From: Escherichia coli
GTDB taxonomy: Bacteria; Pseudomonadota; Gammaproteobacteria; Enterobacterales; Enterobacteriaceae
Assembly: GCF_030013595.1 (NCBI RefSeq)
Contig: NZ_CP122768.1
DNA length: 64,000 nt
Strand: one strand, 5' to 3'
The stretch's first letter is position 1, and every line of letters starts with the position of its first letter. A program made the translations under genes and the position numbers. Positions 18,837 through 20,103 of this stretch are shown in pieces. The notes beneath the pieces are model-generated. The model did no database searches, was not told the origin of the DNA, and worked only from the letters and a program-made list of their open reading frames with translations.

Positions 18837-19841
18837 TCAAACTTTATAGAAGTTACGATACCATTCTACAAAGTTCTTTACTCCCTCTTTAACTGACGTT
18901 TCAGGTTTGAATCCTATTACGTCATACAGTGCTTTTGTATCAGCACTGGTTTCCAGTACATCACCGGGTTGGAGAGGCATCATATTCTTGTTGGCTTCAA
19001 TACCCAGAGCCTCTTCTAAGGCATTGATATAGTCCATCAACTCCACAGGCGAACTATTACCAATGTTATAGACACGATATGGTGCTGAACTTGTTGCTGG
19101 CGAACCTGTTTCTACAGCCCACTGTGGATCTTTTTCTGGAATAACATCCTGTAACCGAATAATAGCTTCGGCAATATCATCAATATAAGTAAAGTCACGC
19201 TTCATTTTGCCGAAGTTGTAAACATCAATGCTTTTACCTTCCAGCATGGCTTTAGTGAATTTAAATAATGCCATATCCGGACGTCCCCATGGACCATAAA
19301 CCGTAAAGAAACGCAGCCCTGTGGTCGGTAAGCCATACAAATGAGAATACGTATGGGCCATGAGTTCATTCGCTTTTTTAGTTGCTGCATAAAGCGAAAC
19401 AGGATGATCTACAGAGTCATCTGTAGAGAAAGGCATCTTGCGGTTCATGCCATAAACAGAACTGGAGGAAGCGTAAAGTAGATGCTGAACATTATTATAG
19501 CGGCATCCTTCCAGTATGTTCAGGAATCCAATCAGGTTTGCATCTGCATATGCATTGGGATTTTCAAGGGAGTAACGTACACCTGCTTGCGCAGCGAGGT
19601 TTATTACGCGATCGAACCGCTCGTCTGCAAACAGTGCCGCCATTTTCTCGCGATCGGCCAGGTCAATTTTATAAAAACTGAAATTGTCGTGCTTGAGTAA
19701 ATCAAGTCGTGCTTGTTTGAGGTTGACATCGTAATAATCATTTAAGTTGTCAATCCCTACAACCTGATGACCAGCTGCAAGAAGCCGTTTACTTACATAG
19801 AAACCGATAAAGCCAGCAGCTCCCGTAACCAGAAATTTCAT
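18837..19841 (-). CDS. gla: NAD-dependent nucleotide-sugar epimerase, probable UDP-glucuronate 4-epimerase (Gla-like)
   Basis: 334-aa ORF MKFLVTGAAGFIGFYVSKRLL with SDR-extended motifs; lies between ugd and wzzB on the opposite strand. Confidence 0.65.
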   Translation of the reverse strand: MKFLVTGAAGFIGFYVSKRLLAAGHQVVGIDNLNDYYDVNLKQARLDLLKHDNFSFYKIDLADREKMAALFADERFDRVINLAAQAGVRYSLENPNAYADANLIGFLNILEGCRYNNVQHLLYASSSSVYGMNRKMPFSTDDSVDHPVSLYAATKKANELMAHTYSHLYGLPTTGLRFFTVYGPWGRPDMALFKFTKAMLEGKSIDVYNFGKMKRDFTYIDDIAEAIIRLQDVIPEKDPQWAVETGSPATSSAPYRVYNIGNSSPVELMDYINALEEALGIEANKNMMPLQPGDVLETSADTKALYDVIGFKPETSVKEGVKNFVEWYRNFYKV

Positions 19842-19992
19842 TTATAATCCTCGCTCAGGCTAGAATATAGCCAATTTTCATCTGGCATAACTGAAAGTTA
19901 AATCATACCGTTAGACAAGAAAAAAAGATAATCGGTATCAGTTCTAAACCTGGCTGTTTTTTCTGGTAACGTGCTCATTTTACAATCAAAGC

Positions 19993-20103
19993 TGTTCTAA
20001 GCTGACTATACAAGCCGACGTCATTATTTCCAACCGTATGGCAGAAGAGCTTAAGGATGTGGCAGATAAGGTCTACACCCGCGATCTTTTTGGCAGCGAC
20101 TAA
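19993..20103 (+). pseudogene. ugd: Relic 3' end of a second ugd allele (last ~30 codons, [33 protein letters not shown])
   Basis: Segment is homologous to 18675-18771 (intact ugd 3' end) at divergent sequence; no upstream reading frame. Confidence 0.65.

Follow-up and report, generated by a model that had tools for sequence, protein, structure and literature searches.

In Klebsiella, ugd is followed by an oppositely oriented gla_KP/uge gene (PMC3101168). For E. coli, a structural paper reported that the O units of O147 and LL004 contain GalA; it named the gene beside ugd in LL004/O147 gne and stated that gla maps elsewhere (PMC8657804). A review of the E. coli O antigens likewise places the genes for UDP-GalA synthesis elsewhere in the chromosome (PMC7685785).

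Gene remnants in the E. coli loci for O antigens and capsules are acknowledged traces of earlier recombination; in the above review, Liu et al. list nine O-antigen clusters that contain them (PMC7685785). O89m/G1C strains, whose capsule locus belongs to group 1, have kept pieces upstream of his that correspond to the last 162 nt of the O8/O9 loci (PMC6128206). Here we describe a further example, a relic of the 3' end of ugd, in a stretch of E. coli DNA of 64,000 nucleotides (referred to as the window). Our literature search found no paper describing this ugd remnant.

Results

Two copies of the ugd 3' end

The analysed region of the window shows 100% identity to the porcine E. coli strains CV839-06 and UMNF18. 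Since wzx and wzy of CV839-06 are annotated as 'O147 family', the window contains an O147 locus. The features between gnd and hisIE are compiled in Table 1.

Table 1. Features of the ugd-gla region; positions refer to the window
Feature	Position	Strand	Description
gnd	15950-17356	+	E. coli-type ORF; annotated gndA in a 100% identical record; 95-100% identity to gla-less strains
ugd, intact	17605-18771	+	ORF, 388 codons
ugd nt 1-339	17605-17943	+	allele class also present in ~670 gla-less genomes
ugd nt 340-1167	17944-18771	+	divergent, gla-linked; left part of the putatively imported block
likely bidirectional terminator	18788-18823		perfect 18+18 nt palindrome (36 nt, 100% complementary) between convergent ugd and gla
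gla/uge-type NAD-dependent epimerase	18837-19841	-	intact 334-aa ORF; probable UDP-glucuronate 4-epimerase
gla upstream (promoter) segment	19842-20009		168 bp, non-coding; right end of the putatively imported block
ugd relic	20010-20103	+	last 29 codons and stop; without start codon
native ugd terminator hairpin	20113-20135	+	just 3' of the relic; conserved in gla-less genomes
native ugd-wzzB intergenic region	20104-20249	+	96.5-98.6% identity to gla-less L005, L089, L090 and L091
wzzB	20250-21227	+	resident; right neighbour of the scar
hisIE	21324-21935	-	

A repeat finder detected a gap-free direct repeat of 92 nt (18680-18771 and 20012-20103) with 75% identity between the two copies, which lie 1332 nt apart. 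The left copy is the end of the intact ugd gene. The reading frame of the right copy shares 24 of 29 residues with the intact Ugd C-terminus, both have a TAA stop codon, and the frame of the relic ends with ...YTRDLFGSD and this stop at 20103. Homology to ugd starts at 20010, with the first whole codon at 20014; the bases 19993-20009 are part of the gla upstream segment and lie outside the relic. The original prediction for this DNA had placed a second copy of the ugd 3' end at 19993-20103, with a convergent epimerase-like gene between the two copies, and had regarded the relic as the ancestral allele. The second copy and its end at 20103 are confirmed, and so is the intervening gene, an intact ORF on the minus strand, whereas the start of the copy has to be shifted to 20010.

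The stretch 20010-20192 aligns with the annotated intact ugd end and the ugd-wzzB spacer in ~3,900 gla-less E. coli genomes. These alignments show 87.6-98.4% identity with E-values down to 3e-84, a match to ugd alleles far beyond chance. Individual comparisons of the relic (94 nt) revealed 94.7% identity to K-12 ugd and 97.9% to the ugd of the gla-less strain 2012C-4502 (L005), as against 74.5% to the adjacent intact ugd and 71-80% to the ugd genes of Citrobacter, Enterobacter and Kluyvera. Because of these values the relic is classed as E. coli-type and the functional copy as the divergent allele, which agrees with the predicted status of the relic as the ancestral, i.e. resident, allele.

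Of the 388 ugd codons, 29 are kept in the relic; the start and the catalytic domains are gone and an in-frame stop is located upstream. Judged by its sequence, the relic derives from the resident E. coli-type ugd, has lost the N-terminal part and is without a promoter. NCBI PGAP already lists it as a pseudogene, a partial CDS without a gene name and with the description 'hypothetical protein, incomplete, missing N-terminus'.

Extent and distribution of the gla-linked DNA

Over its whole length, the intact ugd of the window displays 74.7% identity to K-12 ugd; the corresponding nt identities to the ugd genes of Citrobacter, Enterobacter and Kluyvera are 76-80%. Five gla-less genomes (L005, L089, L090, L091 and L092), which differ in O type (L089 has an O91 wzy), match the window with 96-100% identity over gnd and up to ugd nt 339. 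In all five, identity falls abruptly to ~75% from ugd nt 340. Because these genomes match up to nt 339 and diverge from there, the gla-exclusive DNA starts at ugd nt 340 (17944), and the stretch that appears to travel only with gla corresponds to 17944-20009 of the window, ~2.1 kb.

Four of the five gla-less mosaic ugd alleles encode an identical protein (WP_000704798.1). The mosaic alleles are also the best match of the relic (97.8-97.9%), which mildly favours nt 340 as the left crossover of the import. The left end is ambiguous in that it may represent either a crossover at nt 340 within a mosaic-type allele or the import of a whole ugd with later formation of the mosaic.

The distribution of these segments was analysed in 5,426 complete E. 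coli genomes. The gla block (18772-20009) was detected with at least 95% identity in 278 genomes, nearly at full length in 270 of them, and the junction between gla upstream DNA and relic (19850-20192) is spanned in 271 genomes (~5%). The divergent ugd 3' end with the terminator (18500-18836) and the divergent ugd middle (17940-18499) were found with at least 90% identity in 279 and 276 genomes, respectively. The ugd 5' part with the upstream spacer (17400-17920) was found with at least 95% identity in 946 genomes. The gla upstream segment occurs only in gla-carrying genomes. The matching counts, together with 12 sampled loci, indicate that the gla-carrying genomes and those with the divergent ugd form one set.

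The relic is present in each of the six gla-carrying loci that were read; the sixth, from strain 214-4, was read from the last glycosyltransferase genes onward. The O-antigen clusters beside gla and the relic comprise O147, a manCB/wecB type, an rml plus galE type, an LL004 type followed by O8 wzm/wzt, and that of E. coli C. Records named O169:H41 and O8:H28 also have the gla block. Since the same junction spans at least five O-antigen clusters and 271 genomes, the scar is old and independent of the arrival of the O147 cluster. The C8-type block shows 3-4% divergence, higher near the junction, and may stem from another event that hit almost the same base.

The right junction and variation of the relic

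At the right junction, the DNA from upstream of gla passes directly into ...CCACCTTCAAACAACAAGCC of ugd, and the two sides have ~1 nt in common. Because the left neighbour of the relic is non-coding DNA from upstream of gla, the right join appears to be illegitimate and to lie inside the resident ugd, ~35 codons before its stop. No transposase ORF was found between 18772 and 20009. The block is flanked by no IS, terminal inverted repeats or short target duplication, and the sole flanking direct repeat is the 92-nt ugd end with its 75% identity.

Longer variants of the relic were found in other gla-carrying genomes, with ...GCTGACTATTAG(A)CCACCTTCAAACAACAAGCCGAC... in L088 and L003 and ...TGGTTATCTTCCCCCTTCAAACAACAAGCC... 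in C8. On account of these variants, the original relic should have begun at about the codons ATFKQQ and have comprised 108-111 nt. The window, L002 and E. coli C have a common derived 17-bp deletion at the junction end of the relic, and this end displays four indel/substitution states among six genomes. The relic thus seems to be decaying by small indels.

Of the 15 sites that vary in the rest of the relic (93 nt), 14 are third codon positions. The relic of C8 is 98.9% identical to the intact ugd end of L092 (spacer 97.9%), the relics of L002 and E. coli C are 98.9% identical to the intact ugd ends of L089 and L090, and the relic of the window shows 97.8% identity to that of L005. Relic haplotypes are interspersed with the intact alleles of gla-less strains, which suggests that ongoing recombination runs through the relic, with the intact ugd ends of gla-less strains as its source. 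Because the haplotypes match these intact ends, the near-synonymous pattern would reflect sequence obtained from functional alleles and not selection on the relic.

The epimerase gene and ugd-gla pairs in other enterobacteria

The translated gla ORF contains the SDR motifs GAAGFIG (residues 7-13; GxxGxxG NAD motif) and YAATK (YxxxK). A structure search returned PDB 5u4q (E 4.8e-190) as the top match, an entry deposited as dTDP-glucose 4,6-dehydratase, from which no link to Klebsiella Gla follows. The best named epimerase structure was the UDP-GlcA 4-epimerase (UGAepi) of B. cereus (6zl6, 4e-43), which ranked above WbgU/WbpP and GalE. Comparison with NCBIfam, which holds no gla-specific model, gave full-length matches to SDR epimerase models, all below the equivalog cut-off. 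The gene is present in O147 (window) and in LL004, the two serogroups compared, both of which have GalA in the O antigen. Gla probably converts the Ugd product UDP-GlcA to UDP-GalA for GalA-containing O antigens such as O147, and the supply of UDP-GalA is presumably the reason why the block is maintained or selected.

In a protein scan with one genome per species, the closest Gla sequences were those of Citrobacter sp. FP75, C. werkmanii, Enterobacter cloacae, Enterobacter asburiae and an Enterobacter MAG (84-87% identical aa). The closest gla genes in the sampled genera show 72-77% nt identity, and no donor of the block was identified in this one-genome-per-species scan, in which the best nt identity was 72-80%. 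The G+C content of gla is 42-44% in the E. coli block, compared with 48-54% in the sampled genera.

The gene order in the above Citrobacter and Enterobacter genomes is gnd-ugd-gla(convergent)-wzzB-hisIE with a single ugd end; in Kluyvera it is gnd-ugd-gla-hisIE. In the window as well as in the Citrobacter and Enterobacter loci, gla is convergent and directly follows ugd. The first ~120 nt 5' of the window gla align with the DNA that precedes gla in Citrobacter and Kluyvera, and the motif ATCATACCG...AAAAAAG.TAATCG.TATC is conserved with both. Beyond this alignment, Citrobacter and Kluyvera have their own spacer, with no ugd fragment.

A different ugd-gla pair is found at the same site and in the same orientation in 14 E. 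coli genomes (e.g. LD26-1). The LD26-1-type ugd has 86-87% nt identity to the genes of E. cloacae and E. asburiae. At its right border this import has IS600/IS30 fragments and no ugd relic, whereas the block of the window has the relic and no IS. Because the LD26-1-type pair differs in its alleles and borders and has no relic, it is independent, and the locus has gained a ugd-gla pair at least twice, by different routes.

Discussion

We consider it likely that the relic is the leftover of the resident ugd after a single import of a ~2.1 kb ugd'-gla fragment, which then spread by homologous recombination. The ancestor would have had the usual E. coli order gnd-ugd-wzzB-hisIE. The fragment would have come from an enterobacterium with a native gnd-ugd-><-gla-wzzB arrangement and would have carried most of a divergent ugd, the bidirectional ugd/gla terminator, gla and ~170 bp of its upstream DNA. 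Its left end would have been integrated by homologous recombination in ugd (breakpoint ~nt 340) or further left, its right end by an illegitimate join within the resident ugd ~35 codons before the stop. In this way the last ~108 nt of the old ugd, with its terminator and the old ugd-wzzB spacer, would have been kept downstream of gla. The import would have happened once, and homologous recombination through the flanks would have carried the block across lineages and O types. The relic itself would have no role; it would erode by indels and be repeatedly overwritten from intact ugd ends. In this history, the anatomy of the locus, its distribution, the relations of the alleles, the native gene order of other genera and the decay of the relic are observed, and the single event, the one-sided homology mechanism, selection via the GalA supply and the lack of function of the relic are inferred. 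As such, the relic is nothing unusual, a gene remnant at a hot spot of recombination.

The original prediction had read the relic as the mark of a crossover inside the 3' end of ugd, left by a lateral replacement that brought the whole O147 cluster from galF to ugd together with gla. The relic is indeed of the resident type, the intact ugd and gla are divergent, O147 needs GalA, and recombination is known to transfer O-antigen clusters (PMC7685785). A lateral import of gla and the divergent ugd is thus upheld, and the two-copy arrangement is not universal, being present in about 271 of 5,426 E. coli genomes. The extent from galF to ugd does not hold, however: the gla-exclusive DNA starts at about ugd nt 340, gnd and ugd nt 1-339 occur with 98-100% identity in gla-less strains of other O types, and 271 genomes with at least five O clusters have this very junction. 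A homologous crossover in the 3' end of ugd has to be abandoned as well, as it would leave no duplicate; at the illegitimate join observed here, gla upstream DNA stands on the left and a duplicate was left behind. We therefore regard the galF-to-ugd replacement as improbable. Closer to our reading is the view that the scar is the same but the whole ugd was imported, possibly with the gnd-ugd spacer too, and that the nt-340 breakpoint belongs to a later recombinant allele that spread. It would fit with the 5' part of the window ugd and the remainder of the gene being about equally far from Citrobacter (80% for the 5' part), and with the identical protein encoded by four of the five gla-less mosaics, as expected for a single recombinant allele. 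Yet 946 genomes have the 5' class, 3.4 times as many as carry gla, and the relic is closest to the mosaic alleles, as expected if one of these was the recipient, so that we see import of the whole gene as a serious but rather unlikely variant.

An origin in situ, in which a mobile element inserted gla or the ugd 3' end was doubled in the manner of a long target duplication, could account for two ugd copies that flank gla as direct repeats. The copies differ, however, at 25% of positions, each matches a different allele class with 95-100% identity, and the left one belongs to a full-length divergent gene; the block contains no transposase, terminal inverted repeats or short target duplication. 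Insertion by a mobile element was rejected for the lack of IS ORFs and terminal inverted repeats, and the in-situ origin altogether is extremely improbable. Retention of the relic for a function was considered as well, be it in the regulation of wzzB, in insulation of wzzB from the divergent gla promoter by way of the terminator that was kept, as the -35 element of a hybrid gla promoter or as a small peptide or RNA. Its presence in all six gla-carrying loci read and in the 271 junction-spanning genomes, the almost exclusively synonymous substitutions and a promoter-like site on the minus strand (20033-20005) that spans the junction of the 17-bp deletion could be taken in this sense. Against this, the indel states of the 5' end vary between lineages, the relic has no start codon or ribosome-binding site, and three promoter-like sites were found where 4.5 are expected in shuffled sequence. 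With no enrichment over shuffled sequence, the site across the deletion junction was taken as a chance occurrence. The promoter of wzzB must lie downstream of the native ugd terminator and cannot depend on the relic, because this terminator separates the two. A search of 17300-21400 against Rfam (E<=1) yielded only sub-threshold chance matches and no family. A functional relic is accordingly very unlikely in our view, and we return to the relic as a leftover of the imported ugd'-gla fragment.

On this reading, the scar gives a date and borders to one lateral acquisition in the E. coli locus that recombines most, and this acquisition would predate the present associations with serogroups. The junction of gla upstream DNA and ugd relic provides a simple sequence marker for a GalA-supply module, and the PGAP annotation 'hypothetical protein' can be corrected to ugd relic. 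The position of gla beside ugd bears on the naming of this gene as gne with gla elsewhere (PMC8657804) and on the placement of the UDP-GalA genes elsewhere in the chromosome (PMC7685785). The value of these results is modest, as they open no new mechanism or pathway.

More tentatively, ugd'-gla and the relic might together form a portable 'GalA cassette', in which the relic and the native spacer would provide homology on the right, and gnd with the 5' part of ugd on the left. Such a cassette, and not a conserved gene elsewhere in the chromosome, could be the general source of UDP-GalA for the GalA-containing E. coli O antigens. If so, ordinary E. coli would gain and lose its UDP-GalA supply by homologous recombination, independently of the O-unit genes and wzzB.

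Like other remnants in O-antigen loci, the ugd relic is a short 3' fragment of a gene displaced by new polysaccharide genes and is located near the his operon. It differs from them in that the affected gene is the housekeeping-like ugd itself, which lies outside galF-gnd, in having no IS borders and in occurring across many serogroups. The closest parallel to the imported genes is the Klebsiella ugd-gla pair, the same two genes in the same convergent orientation, with gla right after ugd at the end of a polysaccharide locus (PMC3101168). In Klebsiella, Citrobacter and Enterobacter this pair belongs to the resident genes and gla is not followed by a piece of ugd, whereas in E. coli it occurs in ~5% of complete genomes and is accompanied by the relic. 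Homology-facilitated illegitimate recombination, which combines one homologous anchor with one illegitimate end, takes place during natural transformation of Acinetobacter and Streptococcus pneumoniae. The proposed import resembles this process, as far as a mechanism can be deduced solely from its product: one end would lie in the ugd/gnd homology and the other shows ~1 nt of microhomology, and the outcome is foreign DNA together with a partial duplicate of the target.

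The O147 locus and divergent alleles at gnd-ugd

Genes of the O147 locus were positioned in the window by shifting the coordinates of the E. coli CV839-06 record, which matches at 100% identity, and these are listed with the other features below. According to a review (PMC7685785), the number of glycosyltransferases in O147 is one below expectation.

Coordinates of features at the O-antigen locus in the window and in the compared genomes
Feature	Sequence	Position	Strand
gnu-type GlcNAc-PP-undecaprenol 4-epimerase gene, upstream of galF; then rmlBDAC, O147 wzx and wzy, two glycosyltransferase genes	window	5671-6666 and 6909-15845	
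Sigma-70-like site (TTGGAA, 17 nt spacer, TATAGT), spanning the 17-bp deletion point	window	20005-20033	- (gla strand)
LL004-type cluster, galF-gnd interval	L086, strain C8	3909-27211 (locus)	
gla block and relic as in the window	L087, E. coli C (NZ_CP020543.1)	3629-9415	
Separate ugd-gla pair at the same site	L093, strain LD26-1	3764-8668	

Within E. coli, hyperdivergent allele classes exist for the spacer between gnd and ugd together with the initial third of ugd (window 17357-17943). Alignment of the window with K-12 (L004 1680-2266) showed just 56-66% identity over this segment, and the K-12 segment showed 66-69% identity with Citrobacter, Enterobacter and Kluyvera. The allele class of the window was found in 946 of 5,426 genomes. 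Strain O177:H21 (L094, 3025-4857) carries a ugd with a frameshift, directly followed by hisIE, and has neither wzzB nor the ugd-wzzB spacer.

The gla block and relic in other strains

The -35 element of the sigma-70-like site lies inside the relic, the leftover ugd 3' end, and its -10 element arose at the junction of the 17-bp deletion; sigma-70-like sites in the region are no more numerous than expected by chance. In the laboratory strain E. coli C, gla has lost its 3' end to a copy of ISSen4 adjoining ugd, and wzzB is interrupted by an IS3.

The LL004-type cluster of strain C8 encodes the same glycosyltransferase proteins as described in PMC8657804. This cluster and gnd are followed by ugd-gla-relic-wzzB, a complete O8-type mannan cluster (manCB/wzm/wzt) and the his operon; the C8 locus therefore holds two polysaccharide clusters in tandem.

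The ugd-gla pair of LD26-1, a type present in 14/5,426 complete E. coli genomes, is a second, independent one at this site. This pair has an Enterobacter-like ugd (86-87% nt) and a gla with 75% identity to that of the window. IS600/IS30 fragments separate gla from wzzB, the spacer upstream of wzzB is unlike that of the window, and the ugd relic is absent.

Naming of the epimerase gene

The literature annotation of the gene at window 18837-19841 (-) is contradictory. A 334-aa gene in the identical position was named 'gne' and assigned to Gal synthesis in PMC8657804, where gla is said to map always elsewhere; PMC7685785 likewise puts the UDP-GalA genes at other sites on the chromosome. Its sequence and synteny, and the presence of GalA in both O147 and LL004, point to the gene at 18837-19841 being gla.
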